Source: a virus
Reading direction: 5' to 3' (one strand)
IMG/VR virus record: IMGVR_UViG_3300037859_000002
Location: 47,212-111,211 of that record
DNA length: 64,000 nt
Shown here: piece by piece, positions 1,546 through 62,942 of the stretch
Layout of the letters: each line of letters opens with the position of its first letter
Position numbering within the stretch: position 1 is the stretch's first letter
Notes under the pieces: model-generated
What the model saw: the letters and a program-made list of their open reading frames with translations, nothing else
What the model was told of the DNA's origin: nothing
The model's database searches: none
Made by a program: the position numbers and the translations under genes

Positions 1546-1616
1546 TGATCCTCTTCAGCGCCACCTTGATTGGTGGCCGACGCGCCCCGGCCATGGGCCA
1601 GGGCGGTTTCGGATCA
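1546..1616 (-). ncRNA. hammerhead ribozyme HH4, type II (identical to HH20)
   Basis: UGAUCC GAAA...GUC G GCCACC-GGUGGC G CUGAAGA GGAUCA; perfect 6-bp stem II. Confidence 0.92.
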
Positions 1617-1973
1617 GGCGGGTCGGTCAGGATGGTAGTCGAGCGCGCGCTTCAGCCGTGCGACCAGCGTACGTGGCTTGCTCTCGAGGCCGAACAGCGA
1701 CTCGGACACCTGCTTTGTGATGCCAAAGAACACGGGTCCGATGGACTCGCTGCGGACTTCCTGTTCCCCGACAAAGGGGAACAACATGCGCCCGTCGTCG
1801 AACAGGTGGCGCAGCGTCAGTCCCTCGTTCTGCATCTCGGGCGTCATGGCCGCGTGGCCGATGATGCACCCGGGGCTGCCACAGAAGTCGGTCCAGCGGG
1901 TCATCACCAGCTGATCGGGCGGAATGCTCGCCGCCAGGTCGGTGACGAAGGCCAGCCTCTCGTAGGGTGTCAT
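1614..1973 (-). CDS. CGxxxCIxGH family protein (paralogue 1)
   Basis: CGSPGCIIGH..PEMQNEGL; similar to 2617-2997 and 62482-62865. Confidence 0.75.
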   Translation of the reverse strand: MTPYERLAFVTDLAASIPPDQLVMTRWTDFCGSPGCIIGHAAMTPEMQNEGLTLRHLFDDGRMLFPFVGEQEVRSESIGPVFFGITKQVSESLFGLESKPRTLVARLKRALDYHPDRPA

Positions 1974-1980
1974 GCGCGTG

Positions 1981-2051
1981 GTTCCTCTTCAGGCCCGCGG
2001 GATTGCGGGCAGAGCGGCCCCGCCGCGGTGCGACGGGGTGCTTTCGGATCA
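1981..2051 (-). ncRNA. hammerhead ribozyme HH5, type II
   Basis: UGAUCC GAAA GC...GCUC U GCCCGC-GCGGGC CUGAAGA GGAAC; one extra U after the cleavage triplet. Confidence 0.85.
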
Positions 2052-2252
2052 GTCTTCGGGAGGCGCCCTCACCACGGGATACGGGTAGCCCAGCGCGGTC
2101 ATGACCCGTTCGTGGATCTCGCACGCGTGGTCCCGGTCTTCCTCGTTCCAGGTGGGGCGGCCCTGCCGGCGGCGCCGGCGGTGGGCCGCGTCGGTGCCCG
2201 CCGCGTGGGCGAGCCCGAGGGCCTCCTGGTAGCTGTCAGCGCGGATGGGCAT
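2049..2252 (-). CDS. hypothetical protein
   Basis: short ORF overlapping its upstream gene and ending in HH5; start uncertain. Confidence 0.6.
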   Translation of the reverse strand: MPIRADSYQEALGLAHAAGTDAAHRRRRRQGRPTWNEEDRDHACEIHERVMTALGYPYPVVRAPPED

Positions 2253-2541
2253 CGACGCCCTCGCCGTTGACGGCGTGGCCCACCAGGGTGCCGTAGCGGC
2301 GCCTGGTCGCGTGGGCCATCATGGCCAGGGCTTCGCGCACGCGGCGGGCATCGGCCGCGATCGACAGGAGCTCCGTTTCGGGCACCTGTTCGACCCCCTC
2401 GGGAAAGCGTTGCTGGATCTGCTCGGCGATGTCCTGCACGAGCCTGCAGCAGGCTTTCATCTGGGTGGCCACGGCGTTGCCCGAGGGCATGGAGTCGAGC
2501 GCGAGCGTGAGCCAGTCGTCGGGCAGTTGGTGTTGAGGCAT
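2236..2541 (-). CDS. hypothetical protein
   Basis: 101-aa ORF; RBS lies in HH6. Confidence 0.7.
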   Translation of the reverse strand: MPQHQLPDDWLTLALDSMPSGNAVATQMKACCRLVQDIAEQIQQRFPEGVEQVPETELLSIAADARRVREALAMMAHATRRRYGTLVGHAVNGEGVDAHPR

Positions 2542-2546
2542 CTGGT

Positions 2547-2619
2547 TGATCCTCTTCAGTGCCGGCGATGGTGCCGGCCGAGCGTCCCCGCCGCGATGCG
2601 ACGGGGCGCTTTCGGATCA
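2547..2619 (-). ncRNA. hammerhead ribozyme HH6, type II
   Basis: UGAUCC GAAA GCG..CGCUC G GCCGGC-GCCGGC A CUGAAGA GGAUCA. Confidence 0.92.
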
Positions 2620-2997
2620 GGTTGTGACCGGCTCTTTCAAAAGCCGGTCGATCAGGGCCAGCTGCCGGTCCTTGGTCTGGTGCCGGGGCCGGGCATCATC
2701 GGAATAGAACAGCACGGTCCCGGCGTCGTTGCTGATGCCGAAGAACTCGGACAGGCCGATGTTGCCGACGGGGTTGCCGTTGACGGTCGGCGAAGGCCAG
2801 GGGCCATCGGTCAGCTCCAGGCCCTCGGCCTGGAGGACCGGATCCTGGGCACCGTGGCCCGCGATGCACGCGGTGGTGCCGCACTGTGAAACCCAGGCGC
2901 TCATGTGGATTGCTTGGGCCGGTGTGTTGGCGATGACCTTGCGCAGGCGGGCCAGCCGCTGTCGCGGCGTCAGGCCAACGGGTTCCGGGTCTGTCAT
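2617..2997 (-). CDS. CGxxxCIxGH family protein (paralogue 2)
   Basis: GLTPRQRLARLR..CGTTACIAGHGAQDPVLQAEGL. Confidence 0.8.
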   Translation of the reverse strand: MTDPEPVGLTPRQRLARLRKVIANTPAQAIHMSAWVSQCGTTACIAGHGAQDPVLQAEGLELTDGPWPSPTVNGNPVGNIGLSEFFGISNDAGTVLFYSDDARPRHQTKDRQLALIDRLLKEPVTT

Positions 2998-3003
2998 TGG
3001 TTT

Positions 3004-3073
3004 GCTCCTCTTCAGGCCCGCGGGATTGCGGGCGACCGCCCCGCCCCGGTGTGGGGCGGGGGGTTTCGTCAGC
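3004..3073 (-). ncRNA. hammerhead ribozyme HH7, type II (weak stem II)
   Basis: GCUGAC GAAA CC..GGUC GCCCGC-GCGGGC CUGAAGA GGAGC. Confidence 0.8.
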
Positions 3074-3248
3074 GCGTCGTGGCCGTTTGCTGGGGCGCCA
3101 TGGTGCGGACCAGTCGCTGGCGCAGGGCCTCGACCCTGTTCCAGGCCGTCCAGTCGGTGGCCTGGCTCTGGGTCGCCACCTGCTGACCGTAACTGGTCAG
3201 CGCCGTGATCAGCGTCAGCAGCTCGTCCTCGTCGAGGGCGATGTTCAT
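3069..3248 (-). CDS. hypothetical protein
   Basis: MNIALDEDELL... ORF with ATGA overlap to the upstream gene. Confidence 0.65.
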   Translation of the reverse strand: MNIALDEDELLTLITALTSYGQQVATQSQATDWTAWNRVEALRQRLVRTMAPQQTATTR

Positions 3249-3643: not shown

Positions 3644-3708
3644 TCTCGTTTCGCGCCCACGAACCGGCGGGCGCTCGTCGGCGCCTCTCACATGAGAGGC
3701 GAACGAGA
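3644..3708 (-). ncRNA. hammerhead ribozyme HH8, type III, CCGACGA core variant
   Basis: UCUCGUU / CGCCUCUC-GAGAGGCG / CCGACGA / GCGCCCGC-GUGGGCGC / GAAA CGAGA. Confidence 0.8.
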
Positions 3709-3738
3709 TACACTTAAATGTGGTGAGCCGGGAGTCAA
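3709..3738 (-). promoter_or_regulatory. putative sigma70-type promoter overlapping a CACAT-N4-GTGTA motif
   Basis: TTGACT, 16 nt, TAAGTG; lies between a terminator-like hairpin and HH8. Confidence 0.45.
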
Positions 3739-3777
3739 ATGGAAAGGCCCCCCACCCGGAAAAGGGTAGGGGGCCTT
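3738..3777 (-). terminator. putative intrinsic terminator
   Basis: AAGGCCCCCTACCC-loop-GGGTGGGGGGCCTT followed by TCCATTT. Confidence 0.5.
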
Positions 3778-3788
3778 GCGCGCGAGGG

Positions 3789-3998
3789 TCAGGCGCGGCG
3801 CATCTGGCGCAGACCCTCGCGGGTCGACCTGGCGCCGCCGCAGATGGCCCGATGGGCCACCGCGGCTGCGGCTCTGGTGCGCCGAAGCATCTCCTGCTCG
3901 TCGAGCTTGATCTCGCCGGTCAGGCTGTCCTGCAGGTCCTGCAGGGTATCGCGGGCCGCGGCCAGCGCATCGCGCACATAATCGGGCTGCTTGGGCAT
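3789..3998 (-). CDS. hypothetical protein
   Basis: MPKQPDYVR... with AGGAG RBS. Confidence 0.7.
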   Translation of the reverse strand: MPKQPDYVRDALAAARDTLQDLQDSLTGEIKLDEQEMLRRTRAAAAVAHRAICGGARSTREGLRQMRRA

Positions 3999-4016: not shown

Positions 4017-4117
4017 CGGCTGCCTCTTCGGCACAGGATGGGGGCCCACATCGCTGTGGATGCACGCCGCGGCTCCTTCCTCGCGGGAGGGGCGCGCGCG
4101 CGCATTTCGATCAGCCG
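4017..4117 (-). ncRNA. hammerhead ribozyme HH9, type II, CCGAAGA core variant
   Basis: CGGCUGAUC GAAA UGCGCGC..GCGUGCAUC CACAG..CUGUG CCGAAGA GGCAGCCG; triplet AUC. Confidence 0.75.
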
Positions 4118-4350: not shown

Positions 4351-4362
4351 GCGCGCGTTCCT

Positions 4363-4418
4363 CCCTTTCGCCGGCGGCTGGCCGGCTCGTCAGCCCCCAC
4401 CAGGTGGTGGGGAAAGGG
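4363..4418 (-). ncRNA. hammerhead ribozyme HH10, type III
   Basis: CCCUU / UCCCCACC-GGUGGGGG / CUGACGA / GCCGGC-GCCGGC / GAAA GGG. Confidence 0.9.
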
Positions 4419-4442
4419 GCCGCCCCCCGCAGGGGGCGGTCG

Positions 4443-4685
4443 TCAGTCCCGTCGGTCGATCCAGTAGCGCGGCACCCGATGATCGGGTGGGAAGCCGAAG
4501 CTCCCATCCTGCTCGAGGGTGACCACGATGGTCTCGGGGGTCTCGATCGCGACGGTGTCGACCACGACGAGCTCGAACTGGAATGTCGTGTTCGTGCTGT
4601 CGGCGTCGGCGTAGCGGTCGCCCGCGAGGTCGATGACCGACCCCGGTGTGAGGTCGGCCACCCGAACCATTTCGGGCGCGATCAT
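4443..4685 (-). CDS. hypothetical protein
   Basis: MIAPEMVRVADL..., ATGA overlap with upstream gene. Confidence 0.65.
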   Translation of the reverse strand: MIAPEMVRVADLTPGSVIDLAGDRYADADSTNTTFQFELVVVDTVAIETPETIVVTLEQDGSFGFPPDHRVPRYWIDRRD

Positions 4686-4942
4686 CCTGTGCGATCCCAT
4701 CCTCCGGGATGGCCAGGACGTGGGGTGATCATCGTCACCCTGGGGCGTCGGCGCCGCCACTCGTGCAGCGCCAGCAGCCCGTAGAAGGTCGTGGCCGCGG
4801 CGCCTGTCGTCAGCGCCGCGGCCCACATGATCTGCTGCACCGTCGGGTCGTCCTCGAAGATGAGGAACACGCCGGTCGCGGCAAAGATCACGCCGGCGAC
4901 TCCGCTGATGCCCAGCAGGGCAAAGCCGAGAAGTCGGTACAT
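4682..4942 (-). CDS. small membrane protein
   Basis: two hydrophobic helices and a basic tail. Confidence 0.7.
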   Translation of the reverse strand: MYRLLGFALLGISGVAGVIFAATGVFLIFEDDPTVQQIMWAAALTTGAAATTFYGLLALHEWRRRRPRVTMITPRPGHPGGWDRTG

Positions 4943-4950
4943 GGGTCGTT

Positions 4951-5008
4951 CCCTTTCGCCGGCATGCTGGCCGGCTCATCAGTCCGCCCCATCAGGGAGC
5001 GGAAAGGG
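4951..5008 (-). ncRNA. hammerhead ribozyme HH11, type III
   Basis: CCCUU / UCCGC.CCC-GGGGCGGA / CUGAUGA / GCCGGC-GCCGGC / GAAA GGG. Confidence 0.92.
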
Positions 5009-5058
5009 CGACGCGCCCGCCCCAGCCTTGGGGCCAGAGCGGGCGCGCGTCGTTGGTT

Positions 5059-5286
5059 TCAGGCCGCCAGGGCTTCGTCAGAGGGCGGGGTCGCCCTGCT
5101 GGACTTGCGCCACTCGTAGACCGCACCTGCCACGCAGGTGACGGCCATCAGGGCGTTGACCGCGATGTTGAGGCCCGGTACCAACATGGTGCCCGCGCGC
5201 ATCATCGGGAGCCAGGCAATGGCCAGGCCGGTGAAGCCCACCGCCGAAGCGGCGTAGATGCGGGCGTTCATTTTGTTGCTGGTCAT
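5059..5286 (-). CDS. small membrane protein
   Basis: MTSNKMNAR..., two hydrophobic helices. Confidence 0.7.
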   Translation of the reverse strand: MTSNKMNARIYAASAVGFTGLAIAWLPMMRAGTMLVPGLNIAVNALMAVTCVAGAVYEWRKSSRATPPSDEALAA

Positions 5287-5295
5287 GATGTGTTC

Positions 5296-5350
5296 CCCTT
5301 TCGCCGCAGACTGGCGGCTCATCAGGCCCCACACGCTGTGGGGTCGAGGG
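5296..5350 (-). ncRNA. hammerhead ribozyme HH12, type III
   Basis: CCCUC / CCCCACA-UGUGGGG / CUGAUGA / GCCGC-GCGGC / GAAA GGG. Confidence 0.92.
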
Positions 5351-5386
5351 TGGGTGCCCCCACACAGGGGGCACCCAACAGGAAGA

Positions 5387-5626: not shown

Positions 5627-5703
5627 CTGAGTGATGATGCGTTCGCCCCTTGCCAAAGGGGCCTCGTCAGCCGGGCTCATTGGCTACCCGGTCGCACACT
5701 CAG
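5627..5703 (-). ncRNA. hammerhead-like RNA HH13, type III, non-canonical core
   Basis: UGCGA / CCGGG-CCCGG / CUGACGA G / GCCCCUU-AAGGGGC / GAAC GCA; the A15.1-U16.1 pair is replaced by C-G. Confidence 0.6.
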
Positions 5704-5802: not shown

Positions 5803-6645
5803 ATGCCTAAGGGCCACCCGCCCTCCATCTGGGCCAGCATCCGCGCCGACTATGTCGCAGGCCTGGGCACGACCAACGACCTGGCCCGAACCTATGGCGT
5901 CGACGCCTCGGGCATCCGCAAGCGCCGCATCCTCGAGGCCTGGCCCGAACCGGGCGAACGCATCGTAGACACCGCCCTCTACAGGACCAAATCCAAGCAG
6001 GGTGTGAAACCCGCAGATCAAGCCCCGCGCTCGCCAAAGCAGCAGGCCGGAACACATTTCACACCCGAGGGTGTGAAACCCATGGAACACCCTGGAACAC
6101 CCCCCCGGACGGGCGTGCTCCAGAAGCCCCGAACGCGAGAGCAGGCGCTGCTCATGGCCGCCGAACGCGAGTTCGTCCGAGACCTCGCCATCATCGACGC
6201 CATCGCCCCCAAGGCGGCAGCCCTCATCGAAGACCACCTGGCCCGGACCGCCCAGCTCAAGCAGCACTTCACCCGGCTCCACACCCTCCTGGGCAACCTC
6301 ATCCACGACGACCCCCAGAAGCGCGCGACCGCACAGGACGTGCTCGGCCAGGTGCCGCCCGAAACGGTGCTGAACACGATGCTCAACCTGGCCTCGTCGA
6401 TCCAGCGGCTCGAGCGCCAGTCGCTGCAGCTCGACATGGGGCCCCGGCGCCTCGAGCTCACCGGCAAGGACGGGGCGCCGCTGCCCGCCACCCAGGTCAA
6501 CGTCGGTGTGGGCGTGAAGCTCGACGCCAAGACCATGACGACCGAGCAGCTGGCCGCCCTGGGCTCGGTCCTGGAGGCCGTGGACGGCCAGGCGCCGCGC
6601 ACGGCGCTGAAGCGTCCGCCCCAGGGGCCGATGATTGAGGGCTGA
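5803..6645 (+). CDS. terminase small subunit-like protein
   Basis: N-terminal HTH (WASIRADYVAG..LARTYGV..IRKR), C-terminal ELTGKDGAPL motif, upstream of TerL. Confidence 0.65.
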   Translation: MPKGHPPSIWASIRADYVAGLGTTNDLARTYGVDASGIRKRRILEAWPEPGERIVDTALYRTKSKQGVKPADQAPRSPKQQAGTHFTPEGVKPMEHPGTPPRTGVLQKPRTREQALLMAAEREFVRDLAIIDAIAPKAAALIEDHLARTAQLKQHFTRLHTLLGNLIHDDPQKRATAQDVLGQVPPETVLNTMLNLASSIQRLERQSLQLDMGPRRLELTGKDGAPLPATQVNVGVGVKLDAKTMTTEQLAALGSVLEAVDGQAPRTALKRPPQGPMIEG

Positions 6646-6649
6646 GCAG

Positions 6650-7390
6650 CGCCGGCCTTTCTTCGTGCGTCGGGCCCGTGGTAGAACGCGCGTCGCTACT
6701 GCCGAGGTCACGCTCGGCGTGAGTCCTGCGATGGCCTGGCCAGATCGGGCGGGGCGCTCCCCGCGGACATCGAGCACAGGGCGAACGGTGGAAGTAACGC
6801 CCCTCCAGTAGCCACTTGCACGGCACATCGAAGTGTGAGATACGGTGCGGGCTGCTTGGCGATCAGGCCCGTTACTTTGGAAACTGTAGGTCGTCCGTTC
6901 AAATCGGACCAGCGGTCGCAAGGCTGCTGTAGCTCAGCCTGGTAGAGCAACGGTATGAAACGGACCGCCCTAAATTCCGGCGGCAACTGCTAACCCATCC
7001 GGCCAGGGGTTGTGGCCGGGGACCGAGATGAGTGCCCCGCGAGGGGAGCCAAGCCCCCACAGGGGGCCGCCCGGTTGATCACCGGGCGCTCGGAGGAATT
7101 CAGTTCTGCGGTGGCCGGTACGAAGCGCGAGCAAAGAACCTCGTCGCCCCACGGGCAACCTTACAGTAGGGGCTGGCTACGCCCGGCACACGCAAGTGGG
7201 ATGCCGGCAACGTCGCAAAGCCAGTTCGGCCGCCCGGGACGCCGGGGCGCTCGGCCGACGTGTTGGCCATCGCAGAAGCCAGCTGATTTGGGGTGGTGTT
7301 CTCGGCCCGCATTTCGTGGGCCAAAGCCTTGATAAAACGAGCGTATGTGCTGGTGCCCTTGAGCTGGTCTGGCCATCGCGGAAGCCTTCG
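6650..7390 (+). ncRNA. large structured ncRNA candidate (possibly GOLLD-like)
   Basis: ~740 nt without a credible ORF; many hairpins with GNRA-type loops; internal 17-nt repeat; abuts tRNA-Met; ends approximate. Confidence 0.45.
6883..6954 (+). ncRNA. circularly permuted tRNA-like domain
   Basis: order is anticodon-stem 3' strand, variable loop, T arm, acceptor stem capped by GCAA, D arm, anticodon-stem 5' strand. Confidence 0.75.
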
Positions 7391-7392
7391 GA

Positions 7393-7469
7393 TGCAGGGT
7401 AGAGCAGCCCGGTAGCTCGTCTGGCTCATAACCAGAAGGTCGCCCGTTCGAATCGGGCCTCTGCAACCA
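7393..7469 (+). tRNA. tRNA-Met (CAT), initiator-like
   Basis: full cloverleaf; GAGCAGCCCGGTAGCTC D arm; CT-CAT-AA loop; TTCGAAT; encoded CCA. Confidence 0.92.
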
Positions 7470-30011: not shown

Positions 30012-30072
30012 ACTGAACAAGGCCGGGTGGATACTCTCCACCCGGCCTATTCTATTTGGAGGATGCTTCGTA

Positions 30073-30471
30073 ATGCAACTCTACCGGGTCACCCCCTCGG
30101 ATGTTTCCTGCGTCAGCGTCGACGGCATGATGATCCCCATCGCCGACGGCATGTTCGAGCACGAGGGCCTGCCGACCGCTGCGATCAACGCGCTCGCCGA
30201 ACACGGCGTCAGGGTCGAGCTCGTGCCCACCCCGCCGGCTCCCGCGCCCCAGCCACCGGCGGACGTGCCGGACCAGCCGGCTCCCGCGCCCCAGCCACCG
30301 GCGGACGTGCCCACCCCGCCGGCTCCCGCGCCCCAGCCCACCGAGGCCGAGGAAAAGGCCGCCCTGCTCACCCAGCTGCACGCCCTGGGCGTCGATCCCG
30401 ACAAGCGCCGCTCGGTGAAGCAGCTGCGCACCATCCTGCAGGAACTCACGGCCACCAAGGCCGAGAACTGA
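30073..30471 (+). CDS. Pro-rich protein with tandem repeats
   Basis: three PAPAPQP units; helical C-terminus. Confidence 0.7.
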   Translation: MQLYRVTPSDVSCVSVDGMMIPIADGMFEHEGLPTAAINALAEHGVRVELVPTPPAPAPQPPADVPDQPAPAPQPPADVPTPPAPAPQPTEAEEKAALLTQLHALGVDPDKRRSVKQLRTILQELTATKAEN

Positions 30472-30474
30472 TCC

Positions 30475-31020
30475 GTGGTCGCGCTCGTCACGCTCAACGA
30501 GGCCAAGGCCTGGATGAGCATCACCGACAGCGCCCAGGACACACAGATCACCGACCTGATCACCAAGGCCTCGGCCGCCGTCGAAGACTACCTCGACCGA
30601 CCAGCGACCTCCCAGGCGAGCACCGAGCTCTATGACGGCCTGGGCGGGCGCCGGCTGTTCACCAGTCGCTGGCCGATCACGGCCGTTTCCTCGATCCTGA
30701 TCGACGGCCAGGCAGTCGCGTCCGGCACCTTCGTGTTCCAGGGACGGATGATCCAACTGCGCTCCGGGACCTTCACCCTGGGCGAGCTCAACGTCGAGGT
30801 CACATACACGGCCGGCTGGACGACCCTGCCCGATGAGGTGCGGACCGCGACGCTGATGACCCTGCAGGCCATGCTGTTCGGCACCGCCGCCGATCCAAAC
30901 CTGGTCTCGGAGAGCGCGGGCGGCGTCTTCGGCGGCTCTTTCATCAGCACCGGTCCGGGATCGATCCCGCCGGCGGCGCGCTCCTATCTCGATTCCCATC
31001 TCCCGACGTTCATGCCCTGA
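30475..31020 (+). CDS. head-tail connector protein
   Basis: LVTLNEAKAW..DTQI..LI..AS..VEDYL; VEVTYTAGW. Confidence 0.85.
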   Translation: MVALVTLNEAKAWMSITDSAQDTQITDLITKASAAVEDYLDRPATSQASTELYDGLGGRRLFTSRWPITAVSSILIDGQAVASGTFVFQGRMIQLRSGTFTLGELNVEVTYTAGWTTLPDEVRTATLMTLQAMLFGTAADPNLVSESAGGVFGGSFISTGPGSIPPAARSYLDSHLPTFMP

Positions 31021-35486: not shown

Positions 35487-38400
35487 ATGGACGTGGCCAG
35501 CCTCTCCTTCTCGATCGACAGCGGCCCGGCGGAACGGGCCATCACCTCGCTCGACCGGCTTCGCTCCTCGGCCGACAGCATGGGCCGCTCAAGCGCCCAG
35601 CTGAACCAGCAGTTCAGCCAGGGGGTGCGCTCGCTCACCGACTACCAGCGCGCGACCCTGCTGTTGGGCGAGACCGCGAGCAAGACGGCCAAGAGCCTGG
35701 ACGACCTGGTGGGCAAGATGGATACCCTGACCAGGGGCAGCGTCTTCTCCGGCGGCTCGGGCATGATGGAGCTGCAGAAGCAGCTCGAGAGCATGAGCCG
35801 CCTGTATGGCCAGTCGGCCGCCTCGGCCGAGAACTTCGTGCGCGCGACCCGCGCGATCGGGCTCTCCGCGGGCGAAACCTCGACGGCGCTCCAACGCATC
35901 ACCCTCGCACTCGAGAACGTCACGGCCGAGGGCCGCCAGGCGCGCTCGGTCCTAGAGCAGTATGGCGTGACCCTGAACGGGCTGGGCCTGCGTGACGCCG
36001 AGAGCGTGCTCCGCAATTTCACCAGCAGCGTTCGGGGTTCGCGCGACAGCCTGCAGCGCACCCGCGACATCCAGATGGTCTTCGGCCCCCTGTCGAGCGA
36101 GAGCGCAGACGCGCTCAGTCGCCAGCGGTTTCTCACCGAGGACCAAAGGCGCCGCGATCTCGAGAGCAACGACGCGAGCCGCCGGGCCGCCGCGGCCCGT
36201 GAGCTGGCTTCTGGGGGCGCCTCCTTGGCCGAGCGCAACCGCGCGAGCCTCGAGGCGCTGCGCTCCGACTTCGGCATGCAGGGCCCCGACCTCGGCCGCA
36301 TGTTCCGCTTCGGCCAGAGCGAGCGCGACGTGCTGCTCTCGCGGCGCAACCAGTACGAGGCCTTCCGGCGCGGCGAGGGCCCGGCCCCGGATGGGCTGCT
36401 CAACATCTACGCCAACCAGGCCACGGACCGGATGTTCGGTGGCATCCGGCGCTGGTACGACAATTTCGCCACCGGGGGCTTCGCCGCCCGCCAGGGTGTG
36501 GCCGGGGCCGCCAGCGACTTCTTCAGCGGTGACGTGGGACCCATCACGGGCGCCTATGCGTATGCGTCGATCACGGCGCGAAATCTGCTGAACATGGGGC
36601 CCAGCGACTATGAGGGCCGGCTGCAGCGCGCGATCGAGGAAAATCGCCTGCCCGAGAGTGCCCGCGACCGCCAGATGCGCCGGCTCAGCCAGGCCCAGTC
36701 CCTTCAGCTGATGGGCGACACCGGCATGGCCGGTCTGGTGGCGGCTGAGAGCGCCAACGAGGAACTGGTCCGCAACTACATCCCCACCGCGACGGGCGCG
36801 GGCATCGCCCTGCCCGACGCCCAGCGGCGCTTCAACCGGATCTACGGCAGCAACGCCTTCCGCGGCTCGGTCGCGGCCGATCCGTCCATCGGTTTCGACT
36901 ACCAGGCGCGCCTGCAGGGCGGCAACCTCGACAGCGTCGGGGCCTTCCAGCGCCGGCTGTTCGCCGCGCAGTACGCCCAGAGCCTGGGCATCAGCCCATC
37001 GGACTTCGATCTCGGCGGCGAGAACCTGTTTACCCAGGGGGAATCCGACGTCTTTGGACGGCTCTTCGCGAGCCAGACCTCGGCGCCGATCCTGCGCCAG
37101 TCCAACACCCAGCGTCGGCTCTCTGAGAATGTCGGGGGTGCCGTGCGCGGCGGCTTTAACCGCGGTGAGCGGGGCGCCGCGATCGAGGACCTACAGACCT
37201 CGGAACTCGCCTACCAGCAGGTGCTCGAGCAGACGGGCGATCGCGTGCGCGCCCTGGCCGTGGCCGAGAACGAACTGGCCCAGGCGCGGGATCGGCGCCG
37301 CACCGCCGCGGTCGCCACGATCGCCCAGATGAAGGACGAGGCCGAGGCCGCCGAGACGCTGGCTCGCGCCCTGGGCGGCTTCCCCGGTTCGCAGGCGGAC
37401 GTTGCGCGCGGCTACCGCGCCCAGCTGGGCATCGAGACCCGCCGGCGCTTCGAGGCCAACCCTCTCGAGGGGACAGAGGACGAGATTCGCCAGCGCCTGG
37501 CGCGTCGGGACACCGGGCAGTTTCTCATCCAGGGCCAGGGCCGGATCTCGGATCTGCGTGGCCAGGCCGAGATCAGTCGCGCCCTGCTCGCGGCCGTGCC
37601 GCGAGGGAGCCTCGCGGTCGAGGACGCCCAGCGCAACGCGAGCATCGACCGGGAAGAGGCCCAGGGCCTGGCCCGGGCTCGCGCCGCCGGCGACGTCGAG
37701 GCCGAGCAGGCCATCCGGTCGTACATCGCCTCGCTGCGCGAGCAGTCTCAAGCCACCGCCGAGGCCGGTCGCGCGGTCGCGACCCTGACGTCCCAGATGC
37801 GCGTCCTCGCCTCGATCGAGACCTCCAACGAGCTCGCGGGCATGAACCAGGGCCAGCAGCAGCGCGAGCAGTTCGTGCTCAACCAGGCGCGCGGCCGCGC
37901 CGGATTGGAGAACGCCACGCCCTCCACGGTGCCGCCCGAAGTGCGCGCCGAGCTCGAGGCCCTCTACGAGGCCCAGAGGCGGCCCGGGAACCGTGTCGCC
38001 ATCGACAACGCGCGTCAGCGTGAGGCCCTGGCCCGCGCCGGGGTCGCCCCCACGGGCGCGGGCGCCGCAGCCGCCAGGGCGCGTGTGGCGCGCCAGTTCG
38101 CGATCGGCACCCAGGGCGAGGATCCGGCCGTTGCCGACGCCAACTACCGGGCCGCCCTGTCCGAAATCGGCTCGGGCGTCGCCGGCTCGGGCGTCCAGGG
38201 GATCTTCCAGACAGAGCAGGACACGCTGGCGCGCGCGCGGCGCACCAATGCGCTGCTCACGCGCGGGCGCGCGGGTGCCGCGATCGAGGGCATCGACGCC
38301 CAGGTGGCCCAGCGCATCGCCCTGGGCGGGGCCGCCGCGGGGCAGGGGCCGGCCCTGCGGGGCGCCCTGCTCGGGAACCTGGTCGAAAGCGAGCGCGGCG

Positions 38401-40962: not shown

Positions 40963-41669
40963 TGCGGACGGTCCATCTCTACGGTGCCGCGGGTCGTCGT
41001 TTCGGGCGCCAGCATCGCTTCGACGTCGAAAGCCCGGCCGAGGCCACGCGCGCCCTGATCGCCAACTTCCCCGAGATCCGGCTGCTGATCGCCGACCTCA
41101 GCTGGCAGGTCATCCGAGGACCCCGTCGCCGCGGCGACGTGATCGACGAAACGCGCCTCGGCTGGCGCGGACAGGGCGACTACCACTTCGTGCCCATGCT
41201 GGCCGGCGCCGGTGGCCGTGGAGGCACGGGCAAGATAATCCTCGGCTCCGTGCTGCTCGCGGCCGCCCTGATTCTGGCCCCGCCCGTCGTGGGTGCCCTG
41301 GGTCCGACCCTGGGCATGGCTACGTCGATCGTCTCGGTCGCGGGCCTGACCCTGACCTATGGCGGCGTCGCGACCTTCGGGCTCGGCCTGATCCTCACCG
41401 GGGTCGTTCAGATGATGACGCCCCAGCCCAAGCGCCGTGAGACCCAGACGGCGGCGGCGAACCAGAGCTTCGGTTTCTCCGGGCCGGTCAACATCAACGA
41501 AGAGGGCACGCCCGTGCCCTTGGCCTATGGCAAGTGCCTGACCGGCTCGGTCGTGGGCGCCGCCTCGATCAAGTCCGAGGACTTCGTCTCCGGCCAGCAC
41601 GTCACGACCCCGGCGTTCAAGTACGGGAAGGTGGGCCTGCTCTTCGGCACCGCCGTGGATCGCGAGTGA
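40959..41669 (+). CDS. lambda gpI-like tail assembly protein
   Basis: VHLYG..GRRFGR, SPAEA, FSGPVN..G.PVP..YG. Confidence 0.9.
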   Translation: MMRTVHLYGAAGRRFGRQHRFDVESPAEATRALIANFPEIRLLIADLSWQVIRGPRRRGDVIDETRLGWRGQGDYHFVPMLAGAGGRGGTGKIILGSVLLAAALILAPPVVGALGPTLGMATSIVSVAGLTLTYGGVATFGLGLILTGVVQMMTPQPKRRETQTAAANQSFGFSGPVNINEEGTPVPLAYGKCLTGSVVGAASIKSEDFVSGQHVTTPAFKYGKVGLLFGTAVDRE

Positions 41670-44600
41670 CCAAGCCGTTCGTGCTTGCCGGCGCCGGCGG
41701 TGGTGGCAAGGGCGGCGGCGGCGGCTACGTCGCGCGCGAGGACCCCAACACGCTGCGCTCGAAGTCGACGGCAAAGATCATTGACGTCATCAGCGAGGGC
41801 CCCATCAGGGGCTTCGTCAACGCCGAGCAGAGCATCTACTTCAACGGCGCGCAGCTGAAGGACAGCACCGCGCACTACAACTTCCGCGGCGTCAGCCTGG
41901 CGCTCATGCAGGGCCTGCCCGACCAGGATCCGTGCCCTGGCTTCGAGGCCGTCGAATCAGAGGTTTCGGTCGGTCAGAAGGTCGTGGTCGCGACCCCGGT
42001 CATTCGCAGCTTCACCAAGCCCGAGGCGACGGCCGTGCGGGTGACCGTCAGGATCCCGTCGCTCTACTACAGCACCGACAAGGGCGACCTGATCGGCAAC
42101 GCCGTGAAGTTCGCGATCGAGGTGCGCCGCACCGGCTCGGGCACCTGGTTGCGCCCGGTCGAGGAGACGATCTCCGGCAAGTGTACGAGCGCCTATGACC
42201 GAAACTACCGGATCGAGCTTCCCATGCCTGGTCCCAACTGGGACCTGCGGGTCGTTCGCATCTCGGCCGACAGCGACACCACGCGCTCGCAGACCGACCT
42301 GGTCTTTGCCAGCTACACGCTGATCGTCGATCAGCTGGTTGCCTATGCGGACACCGCCTACGTGGCCCTGGCCGCCGACGCCGAGATCTTCGGCAATCAG
42401 ATCCCCAGCCGCTGGTACGAGATCTACGGGCGCATCATCCAGGTGCCCAACAACTACTACCCAGAGAATTATGACCTGACGTGCCCGCTGCTGGGCACCG
42501 CCGACCTGAGCCCGATGGCCACCTCGGGTGGCGCGGGCGTCTGGGTCCGCTCGACCGAGACGCGCTTCATCGGCGCGGTCACCGATGCCAACGCGCCCTG
42601 GGGCCTGGCCCTGGGCATCGGCGCCCAGCCGGCCGCGGTCGGCACCGCCTGGACCATCGAACAGAAGACCGGGGCCGCCCCCGCGGCGGGCGAAAGCTGG
42701 ACCGCGACCATGTGGGTCAAGCGCCAGGCCGACTGCGGGTTCTACGCCTACCTCTGGCTCGCCGCCGGGATCGGCAACTGCGTGGTCGCCAAATTCAACC
42801 TCAACACCGGGGTCGTCGATACACCGGTGACGAACGGCACGCCCAACCAGACGCTGGTGGCCTCCCAGGTGACCGCGCTGGGCAATGGCTGGTATCGCTG
42901 CAGCGCCCGTTGGCAGTTCTCGGCAACACATACGGATGTGAAGCTGGGGATCTACGGCAGCTTCGGCACCGCCGGGTCGGTCACCGGGGAGTTTCGCTAC
43001 GGGGGCGTCGTCTTCGGCAAGACCTCCCTGCCGGTGCACAACTTCTTCTCGAGCCCGGCGGCCAACACCGTGGGCAAGGGCCTGCCCAGCGCGCGCTACT
43101 ACGACGGCGTCTGGGACGGCGGCTTCAAGAGCGAGTGGACCGATAATCCGGCCTGGGTGCTGCACGACATCCTGACCAACACGCGCTTCGGCCTCGGTGA
43201 CCGGATCGTGCCCAGCCAGGTCGACAAATGGGTGCTCTACGAGGCGGCCAAGCGCAACGACCAGCTGGTGCCAGACGGCTTCGGCGGCTGGGAGCCGCGC
43301 TACACCTTCAACGGCTGGATCACCGACGACGATGACGCCTATCGGGTGGTCGTCGCCATCGCGGCGGCGATGCACGCCATGGTCTTCTGGACCCGCGGCA
43401 CGATCAGCCTTTCCCAGGACGCGCCGCGCGATCCGGTGATGCTGGTCACCAACGCCAACGTGGTGGAGGGCGACTTCCAGTATGAGAGCAGCGCGCTCAA
43501 GGCGCGCCACTCGGCCATCTACACGCAGTGGAACGACCCGACGCTGAACTACCGGGTCGGCACCGACGTCTACGAGGAAGACGGCCTGATCCAGAAATTC
43601 GGTCTGCGCAAGGCCGACATCCGGCCCCTGGGGGTGACCCAACGGGGCCTGGCCCGGCGGCACGGTCGCTACATCGCCTTCACCGAAGCCAATGAGAGCA
43701 AGGTCATCGCCTACAGGGCCGGGCTCGACCACATTGCGATCATGCCCGGCGACGTGGTCTCGGTGCTCGACCGCGACCTGGTGGGCGTGCGCAACGGCGG
43801 TCGCCTCGTGGCCGCGACCACGGGCAGCGTGACCCTCGACGCGCCCACCGAACTCGAGGTCGGTCGCAACTACACCATCAGGGTCGTGATGCCCGACGGT
43901 ACGCTCCAGGAGCGGCCGGTGGTGAACCCGCCGAACATCTACACGGTACTGAGCGTCTCCCCCACCTTTTCGGTGGCACCGGCGCCCAACGCGATCTGGC
44001 AACTGGTCGGCACCGACCTGAAGCCCAAGTCATTCCGGGTGATCTCGAAGGTCCAGGTCGAGCCCCACCTGTTCGAGATCTCGGCCATCAACTACGTGCC
44101 CGAGAAGTGGGACACCATCGAGAACGATGTGGCCTTCGCGCCCGACAGTTGGACCGGGCTGCCGACCGGCTCGCTCAAGCCGCCCACGAATGTCAGCTAC
44201 CTCGACTACATCGGCAGCCGCGGCCTGGCCCCGCTTGCGGGCGTGGCGATCAGCTGGTCGCCCTCGCCGGATCCGCGCACCGCGCTCTACGAAGTCGAGA
44301 TCAGCCGGCCCGAGAACGGTGACATCTACGAGACGCTCGAGAAGACCGCCGGGGTCACATCCGTGGTCGAGAACATCACGGACGTGATCGGCCCATGGCG
44401 CGCCCGGGTGCGGGCCTCCGACGTGCTGGGTCGAAAGAGCAGCTGGGCCGAGCTGGTTTTCGTGCCAGCGGGCTTCAACTTCCTGCCCGACGACGTGCTG
44501 AACTTCCGGGCGGCGCTCAACCGTGGCCGCATCGATCTCTCGTGGGACCCGATCGCGCAGCACGCGGCCGTGCGCTATGACATTCGCTACTCGCCCGTGT

Positions 44601-59786: not shown

Positions 59787-59792
59787 CGGTTT

Positions 59793-59858
59793 CTCCTCAG
59801 CGCCGGTCGATGATGGCCGGCAGAGCCGCACCGGGATCTTCCCGGTGGGCTTTCGTCA
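59793..59858 (-). ncRNA. hammerhead ribozyme HH14, type II (stem II reduced to ~1 bp)
   Basis: UGAC GAAA GCC..GGCUC UGCCGG-CCGGCG CUGAGGA G. Confidence 0.7.
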
Positions 59859-60206
59859 TTCCTTCAGGGGCAGCACGCCGAGTTGCTTCAAAGACTCATA
59901 GGTCGCAAGCCCCCGCGTTGAGCCGTACATGGTCAGGCCCATGGCATCGAGTTTCTCGACGATGGCAAGCACGTGCTGGGCGGCCATCTGTTCTCCCAAT
60001 TTTTTTGTGCTGACGTGGAGCGAGTGCTGCGCGACTCTTTGCCACACGGTGTCACCTGTGTGATCGGTGGGAAAATAGCGCCAACCCTCGCAGACGGTTC
60101 TCAGGGTTTCCTGATCGGCTGCGGCGCGTGGGACCTGGACAGACCAGGTGCCGGAAAAGGGTTCGAAACTGACGTAGTAGGCTCGACTTAGATCAAGTAC
60201 TGTCAT
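59856..60206 (-). CDS. hypothetical protein
   Basis: MTVLDLSR... after GAGGAG RBS. Confidence 0.7.
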   Translation of the reverse strand: MTVLDLSRAYYVSFEPFSGTWSVQVPRAAADQETLRTVCEGWRYFPTDHTGDTVWQRVAQHSLHVSTKKLGEQMAAQHVLAIVEKLDAMGLTMYGSTRGLATYESLKQLGVLPLKE

Positions 60207-60214
60207 CGGATAGC

Positions 60215-60283
60215 TCCTCTTCATGGGGATGATTCCCCGACCGTTCCCCCTGAGTCAAAGCTCAGGGGGCCGGTTTCGGATCA
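60215..60283 (-). ncRNA. hammerhead-like RNA HH15, type II, AUGAAGA core variant
   Basis: UGAUCC GAAA CCG..CGGUC GGGGA-UCCCC AUGAAGA GGA. Confidence 0.7.
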
Positions 60284-60793: not shown

Positions 60794-60799
60794 TGTGGT

Positions 60800-60870
60800 T
60801 GACCTCGTCAGCGCCGGCGATGGTGCCGGCCGAGCGTCCCCGCCGCGATGCGACGGGGCGCTTTCGGTCA
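60800..60870 (-). ncRNA. hammerhead ribozyme HH16, type II (near copy of HH6)
   Basis: UGACC GAAA...CUC G GCCGGC-GCCGGC G CUGACGA GGUCA; compensatory one-pair indel in stem II relative to HH6. Confidence 0.92.
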
Positions 60871-61263
60871 GGCGGACACGGGCACCGGGCCGGTGATCCA
60901 TTCGCTCTCGTCGTGACGGATCACGATCGACTGGTGCCGGTCGTTGTAGACCACCGGGGCCTGCATGCCTGCGTCGGCCCAGCTTCGGAGCCGATTACCG
61001 TTTTCGACGGCGAAGGCCCAGGCGACTGCCGCAGGATCGTCGGACTGGTAGTAGGCCCGGACCTCGTAGTAGGTGCCGAACTCGTGCGGGTTGCCGCGGA
61101 TCTTCATGGTCAGGCCCACGGGCGGCGCGCCATAGACGCGCTCGATGGCCAGCATGAAGGCGCGGCATTCCAGGCGATTGCAATCGCCTGCGTTCTCGGT
61201 GATGCCGGTGGCGGCGCCCTCCTCATACGAAGGACCGCTCCCGAAGTCGGTGAAGGTGGACAT
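60868..61263 (-). CDS. phage hypothetical protein
   Basis: MSTFTDFGSGP..., NPHEFGTYYEV. Confidence 0.75.
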   Translation of the reverse strand: MSTFTDFGSGPSYEEGAATGITENAGDCNRLECRAFMLAIERVYGAPPVGLTMKIRGNPHEFGTYYEVRAYYQSDDPAAVAWAFAVENGNRLRSWADAGMQAPVVYNDRHQSIVIRHDESEWITGPVPVSA

Positions 61264-61268
61264 GTGGT

Positions 61269-61339
61269 TGACTTCTTCAGGCCGGCGACGATGCCGGCAG
61301 ACACGCCCTGCCCGACGATGGGCAGGGGTGTTTCGGTCA
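61269..61339 (-). ncRNA. hammerhead ribozyme HH17, type II
   Basis: UGACC GAAA CAC..GUGUC U GCCGGC-GCCGGC CUGAAGA AGUCA. Confidence 0.8.
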
Positions 61340-61612
61340 GGCTGATTTCGGGATCGAGCCGGGTGCCGCCAGCACGAAGCCATGAACATAGGCTCGATCG
61401 CACTGGCCGACGACTTCGGTGATCGCGTCGTCGCTCATGGAGGACTCAGGTTCCTTCATGAACTCGCCCTCTGGCAGGTAGTTGGAGCAAATGGCCACCG
61501 CTTCGCGCACGGCGACTTCCCAGTCGCTGTCGAGCAGGAACCAGGCAAAGGCCTCGGTGTGGTCGACGCCTTTGCCGAGCGGCTGAGTCTGCAATCCGAA
61601 GATCCAGCTCAT
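61337..61612 (-). CDS. hypothetical protein
   Basis: 91-aa ORF between HH18 and HH17. Confidence 0.7.
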   Translation of the reverse strand: MSWIFGLQTQPLGKGVDHTEAFAWFLLDSDWEVAVREAVAICSNYLPEGEFMKEPESSMSDDAITEVVGQCDRAYVHGFVLAAPGSIPKSA

Positions 61613-61618
61613 GGCTTT

Positions 61619-61673
61619 CCCTTTCGCCGGCGTGCTGGCCGGCTCTTCAGCCCCGCCGATGGGCGGGGAAGGG
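61619..61673 (-). ncRNA. hammerhead ribozyme HH18, type III
   Basis: CCCUU / CCCCGCC-GGCGGGG / CUGAAGA / GCCGGC-GCCGGC / GAAA GGG. Confidence 0.92.
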
Positions 61674-61682
61674 CGCCCGCGG

Positions 61683-61916
61683 CTACGGGGCGGGCGGCAG
61701 GACGCGGATGGTTTCGCCCGTCGTCTGCGATGAGCAGGCGAAGCTCGCGCCCCTGGACTGGGTTTGGTAAATCAGCCGCCGCGTGGCTTCGCCAGCGGTC
61801 TGGCATGCCTCCAATGAGGCATAGACCGCGGTCATGACCGTCGGCGGAACCGTCGGTGGATTGGCAACCACGCCCGGGCTGCTCCAGATCCAGAATATCA
61901 GCACCCATCCGGACAT
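61683..61916 (-). CDS. small hypothetical protein
   Basis: GGAGG RBS; hydrophobic N-terminus; SLEACQ...FACS. Confidence 0.65.
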   Translation of the reverse strand: MSGWVLIFWIWSSPGVVANPPTVPPTVMTAVYASLEACQTAGEATRRLIYQTQSRGASFACSSQTTGETIRVLPPAP

Positions 61917-61961
61917 GCTTGGCCCTCCCCCTGTGAGGGGTCGCAGCCTATCAGAGCCGGG

Positions 61962-62027
61962 TGTCGCTCGTCAGTGCCCATTGGGCAGACGCACCGCCCG
62001 GACAACCCGGACGGGCGTTTCGGATCA
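61962..62027 (-). ncRNA. hammerhead ribozyme HH19, type II (irregular stem II)
   Basis: UGAUCC GAAA CGC..GCGUC UGCCC-GGGCA CUGACGA GCGACA. Confidence 0.8.
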
Positions 62028-62408
62028 GGGACTGTTCGGCTCATAGGTCAGGCTGGGCTTCACGTTCTTGACGTGGAGCACGCCGTGGCCATCGGTGCGG
62101 CCCAGAAATTCATAGGCGCGATCCGCCAGCTTCTGGATCTCGGCGGCCTGATGGCCGAAGGCAAGGGCCTGCATGTAGATCGCGACCAGGCCGCGGTTGC
62201 TGCCCCCCAGCGCGAATGGTTCGGGAGAGACCTCCCCGATCCAGATTTCGGTGGAGAGGCGGCGGATGTTCAGATCGAAGCTGCCATCTGGGTTTTCCCA
62301 GAGCGCGGCGCGGTAGTGCCTGTGCACGGCCTCCTTCAGGATGTGCTGGTTGATTTTCTCGGGCGTGGCATCGCGAATGAGCTGGAACAGTTCGAAAGCT
62401 GTGCTCAT
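62025..62408 (-). CDS. hypothetical protein
   Basis: MSTAFELFQL... after HH20. Confidence 0.7.
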   Translation of the reverse strand: MSTAFELFQLIRDATPEKINQHILKEAVHRHYRAALWENPDGSFDLNIRRLSTEIWIGEVSPEPFALGGSNRGLVAIYMQALAFGHQAAEIQKLADRAYEFLGRTDGHGVLHVKNVKPSLTYEPNSP

Positions 62409-62413
62409 CAGGT

Positions 62414-62484
62414 TGATCCTCTTCAGCGCCACCTTGATTGGTGGCCGACGCGCCCCGGCCATGGGCCAGGGCGGTTTCGGATCA
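62414..62484 (-). ncRNA. hammerhead ribozyme HH20, type II (identical to HH4)
   Basis: same 71 nt as 1546-1616. Confidence 0.92.
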
Positions 62485-62865
62485 GGCTTCGACACGCTCT
62501 TCCAGGAGCTGGTCCATCAGGGCCAGCTGCCGAGCCTTGGTTTCTTCCCCTGCCGGAGCAATGAGGTCGTAAAACAAAGCAGTCACCATCCTGGGATCAT
62601 TGATACCGAAGAACTTGGCCAGTTCCTGCGGTCTGTTGTGGAACAGCCCATGGATGCTGAGGCTCCCCGTGAGCGGCAATAGATTCAGTCCCTCGGCCTG
62701 GAGGACGGGATCCATGGCACCGTGTCCTGCGATGCACGCGGTGGTGCCGCACACGGACCTCCATTTGGCCATCTCGATCGTCTCGGCCGGGGTATCGGCG
62801 ATGACCTCGCGGAGGCGGGCGAGCCGCTGCCGCGGGGTCAGGCCGACGCGTTTTTGGAACTTCAT
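62482..62865 (-). CDS. CGxxxCIxGH family protein (paralogue 3)
   Basis: GLTPRQRLARLR..CGTTACIAGHGAMDPVLQAEGL. Confidence 0.8.
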   Translation of the reverse strand: MKFQKRVGLTPRQRLARLREVIADTPAETIEMAKWRSVCGTTACIAGHGAMDPVLQAEGLNLLPLTGSLSIHGLFHNRPQELAKFFGINDPRMVTALFYDLIAPAGEETKARQLALMDQLLEERVEA

Positions 62866-62873
62866 CGGATAGC

Positions 62874-62942
62874 TCCTCTTCATGGGGATGATTCCCCGAC
62901 CGCTCCCCCCGAGTCAAAACCCAGGGGGGCGGTTTCGGATCA
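62874..62942 (-). ncRNA. hammerhead-like RNA HH21, type II, AUGAAGA core variant
   Basis: near copy of HH15. Confidence 0.7.

Follow-up and report, generated by a model that had tools for sequence, protein, structure and literature searches.

Our analysis shows that predicted hammerhead ribozyme sequences have been exchanged between gene junctions that serve unrelated genes of a bacteriophage. The explanation that we consider probable is that these junctions are modules for cutting transcripts which are also exchanged among each other as patches of homology, likely by the Erf/RecE functions of the phage itself. The window, i.e. the whole 64-kb stretch of DNA that was analysed, is part of a provirus record of ~110-111 kb that has a tRNA-Arg gene of its Hyphomicrobiales host as integration site and contains an integrase, the tRNA-Arg site, a terminase and a portal gene. 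The host is a soil-type alphaproteobacterium. The phage is probably temperate, with two of its three leftward early-gene arrays in the window, and the third small-gene array lies outside of it.

Hammerhead elements in the small-gene arrays

We identified 19 well-formed hammerheads in the window (12 of type II and 7 of type III) plus 3-4 core variants or weak elements (Table 1). All are encoded on the minus strand and confined to two arrays of small genes, and a hammerhead is present at nearly every junction between non-overlapping array genes. The three arrays of the whole phage together contain ~25-30 hammerhead modules in a single orientation. PHROGs and Pfam searches with 21 array proteins gave no functions, save for weak matches below threshold.

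Table 1. Hammerhead elements and P-family genes of both arrays in window coordinates. HH numbers are those of the original prediction, matched through coordinates.
Feature	Class	Array	Position	Strand	Remarks
HH1	type III	left	104..167	-	core CUGACGA, stem III GCGC/GCGC; ATG at 90 is 18 nt downstream
HH2	type III	left	709..765	-	~91% identity to HH22, 92% to HH12; preceded by GC hairpin
HH3	type II	left	1229..1299	-	Rfam 31 bits; 85% identity to HH4/HH20
HH4	type II	left	1546..1616	-	between P-like gene 1614-1973 and unrelated gene 1297-1539
HH5	type II mosaic	left	1980..2051	-	stem III HH6/HH16-like, stem I HH7-like
HH6	type II	left	2547..2619	-	stem II GGAUCA/UGAUCC; 95% identity to HH16
HH7	type II	left	3003..3073	-	stem II weak; upstream of P_A
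HH8	type II-like variant	left	4033..4113	-	core CCGAAGA (U4 to C); activity doubtful
HH9	type III	left	4361..4419	-	cleavage triplet CUU
HH10	type III	left	4949..5008	-	top Rfam type III score, 23.5 bits
HH11	weak hammerhead-like candidate	left	5058..5098	-	Rfam 10.9 bits; unconvincing
HH12	type III	left	5294..5351	-	similar to HH2/HH22
HH13	type III-like variant	left	5636..5698	-	C-G replaces A15.1-U16.1; start of left array transcript
HH14	type II	right	59788..59860	-	stem II weak; precedes final gene of right array
HH15	type II fold	right	60212..60283	-	core AUGAAGA (C3 to A); 94% identity to HH21, 95% to copy at genome 36029-36109; contains promoter-like hexamers TTGACT-18-AATCAT
HH16	type II	right	60799..60871	-	stem II GGUCA/UGACC; 95% identity to HH6
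HH17	type II	right	61268..61340	-	
HH18	type III	right	61617..61676	-	
HH19	type II	right	61962..62027	-	Rfam 28 bits; ATG 51 nt downstream
HH20	type II	right	62414..62484	-	same as HH4; downstream junction of P_B cassette
HH21	type II fold	right	62871..62942	-	core AUGAAGA; upstream junction of P_B cassette
HH22	type III	right	63477..63535	-	similar to HH2/HH12
P_A	gene, 126 aa	left	2617..2997	-	one of five P-family copies; flanked by HH7, HH6
P_B	gene, 127 aa	right	62482..62865	-	53% aa identity to P_A; flanked by HH21, HH20
gA10	gene, 119 aa, distant P paralogue	left	1614..1973	-	34% to P_A; flanked by HH5, HH4

Each of the 19 well-formed copies combines three helices and an NUH site with a hammerhead core. 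The consensus core CUGANGA...GAAA is found in 17 of them, the other two (HH15 and HH21) having AUGAAGA, and other changes of the core occur in three additional elements. An RNA search model built from five copies gave 16 matches at E<0.001, namely 15 type II copies and, over part of its length, the type III element HH1; every match was on the minus strand and inside the arrays. In the type II covariation alignment, which was fitted to this RNA model, 93% of cells pair and compensatory changes occur at 14 of 19 pairs; none of 500 shuffles was as good, and slid controls paired in only 35-46% of cells. For type III, the minimum-energy fold of most copies is a three-way junction, with stems II and III that vary yet pair. 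The cleavage triplet is GUC or CUC in 12 of 12 type II copies and was read as CUC or CUU in type III. The Rfam gathering score was reached by no copy (best 31 vs 37 bits for RF02276 and 23.5 vs 48.5 bits for RF00008), which we attribute to the long stems, the mismatches at 1.1-2.1 and the short stem II. In several copies stem II is weak, position 1.1-2.1 is mismatched or bulged, or the core is altered (A3, C4, or C-G at 15.1-16.1); such core changes usually cripple activity and count against the predicted cleavage. Judged by modelled pairing, the elements are real hammerhead folds.

The order of parts in the junction module is upstream stop codon, stable 3' hairpin, cleavage site, stem I 5' hairpin, core, Shine-Dalgarno and start codon, with the stop codon placed within the 5' end and the Shine-Dalgarno within the 3' end in the same register in every copy. 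A UGA occurs within 6 nt ahead of GAAA in all 12 type II copies, the ATG follows the core end or GAAA at a distance of 7-18 nt in all but one of the 19 copies, and most type III copies are preceded by a GC hairpin (-20 to -37 kcal/mol). This layout suggests that long transcripts would be cut into messages of a single gene or a few genes with a hairpin at each end, and that the ribosome-binding site would sit in the sole helix that opens on cleavage.

Near-identical junctions between unrelated genes

The original prediction had described particular junctions as being reused between different genes, and we found the same resemblances. HH4 (1544-1619) and HH20 (62412-62487) lie 60,868 bp apart and agree at every one of 76 nt (100% identity); the genes downstream of them (1297-1539, 80 aa, and 62025-62408, 127 aa) are without similarity, and the flanking sequences are unrelated. 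HH6 resembles HH16 (94.9% over 79 nt), HH15 resembles HH21 (93.9% over 82 nt), and HH2 resembles both HH22 (90.6% over 96 nt) and HH12 (91.8% over 61 nt). The stem II indel between HH6 and HH16 is indeed compensatory, since GGAUCA/UGAUCC in the one corresponds to GGUCA/UGACC in the other, with one base fewer per strand and pairing kept. HH5, which had been called a mosaic, is 90% identical on its stem III side to HH6/HH16, whose stem I matches only 61%, and 94% identical on its stem I side to HH7 (the same 18 nt and one extra U), where stem III matches only 70%. For comparison, hammerhead pairs of the same type average 68% identity, and the near-identical pairs gave BLAST E values of 1e-18 to 1e-34. 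Their similarity is far above chance. An excess of near-identical pairs between the arrays was not significant (5/6, p=0.37). The distances of stem I and stem III are positively correlated (Mantel r=0.51), and reassortment of stems is therefore occasional rather than free.

The P gene family provides an internal test. The distant paralogue gA10 shows 46% identity to a family copy at genome 33825-34193 that follows a type III hammerhead; the alignment of gA10 with this nearest paralogue begins at the ATG, and the junctions ahead of the two genes are of type II and type III, respectively. Altogether the five P paralogues follow junctions of four kinds: type II occurs in its ordinary form, as the A3 variant and as the mosaic, and the fourth kind is type III. 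P_B and P_C, which share 63% aa identity, have the upstream junction kind in common and differ in the downstream kind, and P_A and P_C have the downstream kind in common and differ in the upstream kind. In the three closest P cassettes homology runs from the 5' edge of the upstream hammerhead to the ATG past the downstream one. The junction kinds are at odds with the gene tree, and, since homology also ends at the hammerheads, junctions have been exchanged without regard to the genes.

Extent and possible engine of the exchange

The idea of a cassette-like shuffling of genes at ribozymes holds in part. Junctions have moved between unrelated gene contexts with breakpoints that fall within the ribozymes or on their margins, as indicated by the identical pair and by HH5. 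The extent that was borne out is exchange of short junction tracts plus one family of hammerhead-bounded paralogous cassettes; as to the proposed addition, deletion and reordering of genes, no such event at a ribozyme was observed in the sequences searched, and cassette duplication was seen in one gene family only. The further claim that no integrase is needed agrees with the gene content. The sole tyrosine recombinase (a single Phage_integrase match in the record, at genome 1920-2390) is adjacent to the tRNA-Arg attachment site and tens of kb away from the arrays. For recombination the phage encodes a module of its own, with a RecE-like exonuclease (E 9e-30), an Erf-like annealase (E 6e-28) and an SSB (E 9e-45).

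The module copies, all in one orientation, double as homology patches of 60-80 bp and have traded sequence, probably via homologous recombination or gene conversion, in tracts that match the junction and with some breakpoints inside it. Junctions would in this way evolve in concert and apart from the genes they serve, and hammerhead-bounded genes could be duplicated or replaced as cassettes. The presence of the RecE-like exonuclease, the Erf-like annealase and the SSB makes them the likely engine. A more far-reaching reading seems possible but rather doubtful to us, namely that the junctions are a selected, integrase-free cassette system. Each gene would come with one and the same portable module for processing and translation, Erf/RecE could thus duplicate, replace or delete individual accessory genes among the three arrays and with co-infecting relatives while expression is kept, and host RtcB might in addition circularise units that lie between hammerheads of one type.

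Alternative explanations

Duplication followed by divergence might produce similar junctions without any exchange, if the genes had diverged beyond recognition and purifying selection had kept the ribozymes alike. The P cassettes do show that units of junction, gene and junction duplicate, and hammerhead core and pairing are constrained. However, stems and loops vary freely, subtypes differ throughout with pairs kept, and some P-cassette junctions have diverged about as much as the genes (78% between HH6 and the copy at genome 35600, ~70% for the genes), so that a match of 76 out of 76 positions, loops included, beside dissimilar genes cannot be old. Because the HH5 mosaic and the mismatch between P tree and junctions also require exchange, we regard duplication without exchange as unlikely. 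Exchange could also have occurred on the RNA level, if units cleaved at both ends (5'-OH and 2',3'-cyclic phosphate) were joined by RtcB or by the reverse reaction and the chimeras re-entered DNA. The helices that open (stem II GGAUCA/UGAUCC or stem III GGG/CCC) are near-constant in most copies of a type, so that a hammerhead could form again from the ends of a unit that has one hammerhead type on both sides. The gene for host RtcB adjoins the attachment site, and if the P_A unit were circularised, HH6 would contribute stem III and HH7 stem I to the joint, the same combination as in HH5. Unequal crossover or conversion of DNA would yield the same HH5-like chimera, though, and the conservation of the open helix is more simply due to its stop codon and Shine-Dalgarno. 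Moreover, the record has no reverse transcriptase (no RVT_1 match), and when Perreault et al. looked for circles or spliced RNAs made by arrays of this kind, the outcome was negative (PMC3088659). An RNA route is thus quite improbable, and the circularisation of cleaved units by RtcB is speculative. RtcB was also considered as a phage gene and rejected, as it lies outside the integrase/tRNA-Arg boundary and matches the RtcB encoded on the chromosomes of several genera at 67-72% identity.

Near-identical copies at unrelated sites would likewise be expected from selfish elements of the MITE or REP kind that insert themselves into intergenic DNA. Such elements are hard to reconcile with a single orientation and one exact register relative to stop codon, Shine-Dalgarno and ATG, with no copies on the other strand or beyond the arrays, and neither target duplications nor terminal inverted repeats nor a nearby transposase were found; we give this origin a very small chance. 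The record derives from a metagenome contig of 382.5 kb, and exact repeats of 76 nt can mislead short-read assemblers, which might have collapsed or mis-joined them. Yet many pairs are 85-95% identical, which is not a product of collapsing, and reading frames enter and leave every junction cleanly, so that an assembly artefact is hardly conceivable.

Search for relatives

Searches of phage, IMG/VR, GTDB, Hyphomicrobiales and metagenome sequences revealed no hammerhead-bearing relative of this phage. Both arrays were without blastn match in 50,697 phage records, and the nearest cultured phage shows 41% identity. The terminase gave at most 41% identity in IMG/VR, at loci without hammerheads, nothing in GTDB contigs, and best matches of 40-49% in 401 Hyphomicrobiales genomes, in six of which the upstream 20 kb contained no hammerhead. 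Junction DNA patterns returned no matches, or chance and isolated weak ones, from IMG/VR and metagenomes, a DUF932-anchored search found no relatives, and a P-family profile hit seven distant loci in IMG/VR, again without hammerheads. The RNA model and RF02276 gave nothing among the 31 candidates scored per genome in 151 Hyphomicrobiales genomes, a result that says little.

Comparison with known systems

Clustered hammerheads in prophages have been described to flank single genes or short gene blocks and to cleave in vitro; for the A. tumefaciens set, cleavage was also seen in vivo, with E. coli as the expression host (Perreault et al. 2011, PMC3088659). That study likewise found type II and III hammerheads among small genes of variable identity in polycistronic prophage regions, tested hosts from the same order as ours (Azorhizobium, Agrobacterium), proposed the same role in cutting transcripts to gene length, and considered circular products too. 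The arrays studied here show the same arrangement, i.e. several coding-strand hammerheads that flank genes or short blocks of a prophage operon. They differ in having ~25-30 copies in three arrays, where triple arrangements were tested by Perreault et al. (PMC3088659), in a stop codon and ribosome-binding site that are built into the ribozyme, and in the sequence evidence for junction exchange between genes, of which we found no discussion in the cited literature. The layout of hammerheads and small genes was thus already described in 2011, and what is new is solely the evidence that junctions are swapped.

The modular theory of phage evolution is reportedly that of Susskind and Botstein. Erf-type recombinases act on diverged sequences and in this way drive the mosaicism of phages (De Paepe et al. 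2014, PMC3945230). Our case resembles modular evolution in that crossovers are placed on short, conserved stretches between genes and that the phage encodes a Rad52-like (Erf-type) recombinase, a class that tolerates divergence (PMC3945230). In contrast, the border sequence here is a predicted ribozyme found at almost every junction of one genome, and exchange is documented between arrays within this genome and not between phages. Integron cassettes are similar in that single genes without promoters are lined up, each bordered by a structured repeat, and that the content varies. However, the arrays have no IntI-type integrase and are not integrons; their repeats are RNA ribozymes with a task on the transcript level, and any exchange would be general homologous rather than site-specific recombination. 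Retrozymes and viroid-like hammerhead circular RNAs are also units bounded by direct hammerhead repeats, with ends that could be ligated by an enzyme of the tRNA ligase type (PMC4918200, PMC7761336). Retrozymes are eukaryotic non-coding retroelements that spread via RNA circles and a reverse transcriptase in trans (PMC4918200, PMC7761336), whereas the units described here are protein-coding phage genes without reverse transcriptase, and circles of them are hypothetical.

What hammerheads do for bacteria and phages is still an open question (PMC6765202). A junction module that served in transcript processing and at the same time hosted crossovers would explain the fast-changing sets of orphan accessory genes in the arrays, and also how a gene can be expressed correctly as soon as it is acquired. 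The arrays would then represent an RNA-defined counterpart of integron cassettes that is run by general recombination, and they would provide a testable rule for the position of mosaic breakpoints in phages.

Hammerhead elements and junction layout

At the gathering score, Rfam returned no hammerheads in the window, and a permissive threshold gave five minus-strand matches of type II, at either end of the window. Many further copies emerged when the surroundings of each CUGANGA on that strand were read. Twelve copies are of type II, with stem II open and the order UGAUCC-GAAA, stem III hairpin, U-C, stem I hairpin and CUGANGA-GGAUCA, and seven are of type III, with stem III open and stems I and II closed. 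Three or four additional elements have changed cores. Five copies were used to build a covariance model, which yielded 16 matches at E<0.001, namely 15 type II copies and a partial match to HH1, a type III copy (elements HH1 to HH22 are numbered by window coordinate). All 16 are on the minus strand and fall within arrays of small genes; a third array, beyond the window at genome 34-38 kb, accounts for four of them. In the resulting alignment, which is fitted to the model, 93% of cells are paired and both partners have changed in 14 of 19 pairs; the same statistic was reached in none of 500 shuffles, and slid controls gave 35-46% pairing. In several copies the predicted cleavage would probably be impaired by features of the element.

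With one exception the elements end 7-18 nt upstream of a start codon. Stem II of type II copies carries the UGA stop of the upstream gene in its 5′ strand and a GAGGA in its 3′ strand; in type III copies the likely ribosome-binding site is the AAAGGG of stem III. A strong GC hairpin (-20 to -37 kcal/mol) directly adjoins the 5′ side of most type III copies, a position that would place it at the 3′ terminus of the product cut off upstream. When a type II copy is cleaved, the hairpin left on the upstream product would be the stem III of that copy, so that with either design each cut message would be hairpin-ended at both ends. Such an arrangement would fit the processing role that was proposed in 2011 (Perreault et al.).

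The three copies with an AUGAAGA core (C3 to A), of which the two in the window lie 2.66 kb apart, contain TTGACT in the loop of stem III and AATCAT in that of stem I with 18 nt between them, a sigma-70-like promoter match. These copies may have become defective as ribozymes and been co-opted as internal promoters, or may serve in both roles. The left array contains a terminator-like hairpin with promoter-like TTGACT ... TTTAAG hexamers after it, suggesting that this array comprises two transcription units; the word CACCACAT of this region is found again near a presumed promoter.

Features of the window and of the remainder of the record (genome coordinates refer to the whole record)
Feature	Window	Genome
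Identical tract around HH4	1544-1619	
Identical tract around HH20	62412-62487	
P_A gene	2617-2997	
P_B gene	62482-62865	
P_C gene		35657-36031
Distant P-family pair, gA10	1614-1973	
Distant P-family pair, other member		33825-34193
AUGAAGA-core copies	60212-60283, 62871-62942	36036-36107
GC hairpins at type III hammerheads	770-795, 4425-4446, 5012-5050, 5355-5380, 63540-63563	
Terminator-like hairpin and promoter-like hexamers	3700-3790	
Second occurrence of the word CACCACAT	~5730	
YrlA-like match	6865-6970	
tRNA-Met	7393	
tRNA-Thr	8022	
Left prophage boundary (host RtcB, two tRNA-Arg genes, prophage integrase)		1-2888
83-aa ORF		4631-4828
Ro60-like TROVE-VWA protein gene		5904-7445
tRNA-like gene, CUA anticodon		7984-8059
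SSB, Erf-like and RecE-like genes		29419-31726
Arrays with 36-nt period		41500-43561

Exchange of junctions between genes

The original prediction held that ribozyme junctions are reused between different genes in a cassette-like shuffling. HH4 and HH20 are indeed identical, over a tract of 76 nt that starts three bases before the upstream stop codon and ends eight bases past the core, and the genes downstream of them are unrelated. The other resemblances that had been noted between junctions were borne out, at 91-95% identity, compared with 68% on average between copies of the same type. HH5 is a mosaic as proposed, with a stem III 90% like that of HH6 and HH16 and the stem I of HH7, and the stem II indel between HH6 and HH16 is compensatory, one base being lost per strand with pairing retained.

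Self-comparison of the three arrays served as an internal test and revealed one gene family (P family) with five members across them. Alignment of the three close cassettes, those of P_A, P_B and P_C, showed that similarity (about 70% within the gene) runs from the 5′ edge of the upstream hammerhead to the start codon after the downstream hammerhead. P_B and P_C, the closest genes, have the kind of upstream junction in common (the AUGAAGA variant, about 92% alike) and differ in their downstream junctions; P_A and P_C have the downstream kind in common but not the upstream one. In the distant pair the alignment starts at the ATG, one gene standing behind a type II and the other behind a type III hammerhead. 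HH4 and HH20 each follow a P-family gene, and these two genes are without detectable DNA similarity while their junctions are identical. Since the kind of junction does not follow the P gene tree, we conclude that junctions have been replaced. Copies of a hammerhead-bounded gene have moreover entered all three arrays.

P_A, P_B and gA10 had no Pfam match and no clear PHROG match. A profile of the family matched 2,777 cluster representatives at E<=0.001, 92 of them at E<=1e-10, which points to an unnamed but widespread family of proteins of 110-150 aa. Conserved motifs are CG-x-x-x-C-I-x-GH, Q-x-EGL and FFG.

A plausible engine for the exchange is encoded by the phage itself: genes for SSB, an Erf-like annealase and a RecE-like exonuclease form a consecutive run immediately downstream of the third hammerhead array and a DUF932 gene. 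Recombinases of the Erf type are drivers of phage mosaicism and promote exchange even where sequences have diverged (PMC3945230). The sole tyrosine recombinase in the record is the one at the tRNA site, and no reverse transcriptase was found in the record. Relatives with these arrays were not found in phage records, IMG/VR, GTDB contigs, metagenomes or Hyphomicrobiales genomes, sets from which the nearest kin of this genome may be absent. The predicted shuffling is thus partly supported: the exchange of junctions and one cassette family stand; gain, loss or reordering of genes at the ribozymes is what we infer, not what we observed, and shuffling between phages is hypothetical.

Prophage context and the question of RNA circles

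The record is a single-contig IMG/VR provirus of 111,211 bp with an estimated completeness of 93%, of which the window is the last 64 kb; its parent contig measures 382 kb. Its left end reads, in order, an RtcB ligase gene, two tRNA-Arg genes and a tyrosine integrase, and plus-strand structural genes including terminase and portal occupy the middle of the window. The prophage is integrated at a tRNA-Arg gene, with RtcB as host flank. The RtcB protein shares 67-72% identity with its chromosomal counterparts in Microvirga, Bradyrhizobium, Labrys, Chelatococcus and Methylobacterium, which places the host within the Hyphomicrobiales. No second copy of the tRNA end is present in the record; the right end, which is also the window end, is therefore cut inside the prophage.

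The RtcB gene beside the prophage bears on the earlier suggestion that hammerhead-flanked units could be closed into RNA circles, here by the host ligase. The similarity among the open helices could suffice for a unit between same-type hammerheads to rebuild a hammerhead from its two ends, but the conservation of these helices is accounted for by the stop codon and ribosome-binding site that they contain. Likewise, a circle of the P_A unit would match the composition of HH5, yet a DNA crossover predicts the same chimera. As Perreault et al. also sought circles and found none, we regard circularisation by RtcB as very improbable.

An 83-aa ORF matches the RtcB C-terminal region just below threshold (26 bits versus 27) and shows no similarity by BLAST to the RtcB of the host. 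Next to tRNA-Met and tRNA-Thr genes lies a sub-threshold Rfam match to the Y RNA-like YrlA family (34.6 bits versus a gathering score of 69), and other phage genes include one for a Ro60-like TROVE-VWA protein and a tRNA-like gene with a CUA anticodon. Outside the window, a 396-aa ORF without Pfam match is surrounded by three arrays whose units have a 36-nt period and two alternating conserved words.

Relation to known hammerhead arrays

Perreault et al. (2011) described prophages in which multiple hammerheads border individual genes or small gene blocks, the identities of these genes not being constant, and showed cleavage for arrays of Azorhizobium, Agrobacterium and Clostridium. A 2019 review listed hammerhead function as still open, and in the literature covered here nothing was found on hammerheads as recombination joints. 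The arrays described here have this same arrangement and represent a large and well-organised example of it. While the arrangement itself is already known, the evolutionary evidence, that is the exchange of junctions and one cassette family, is new.
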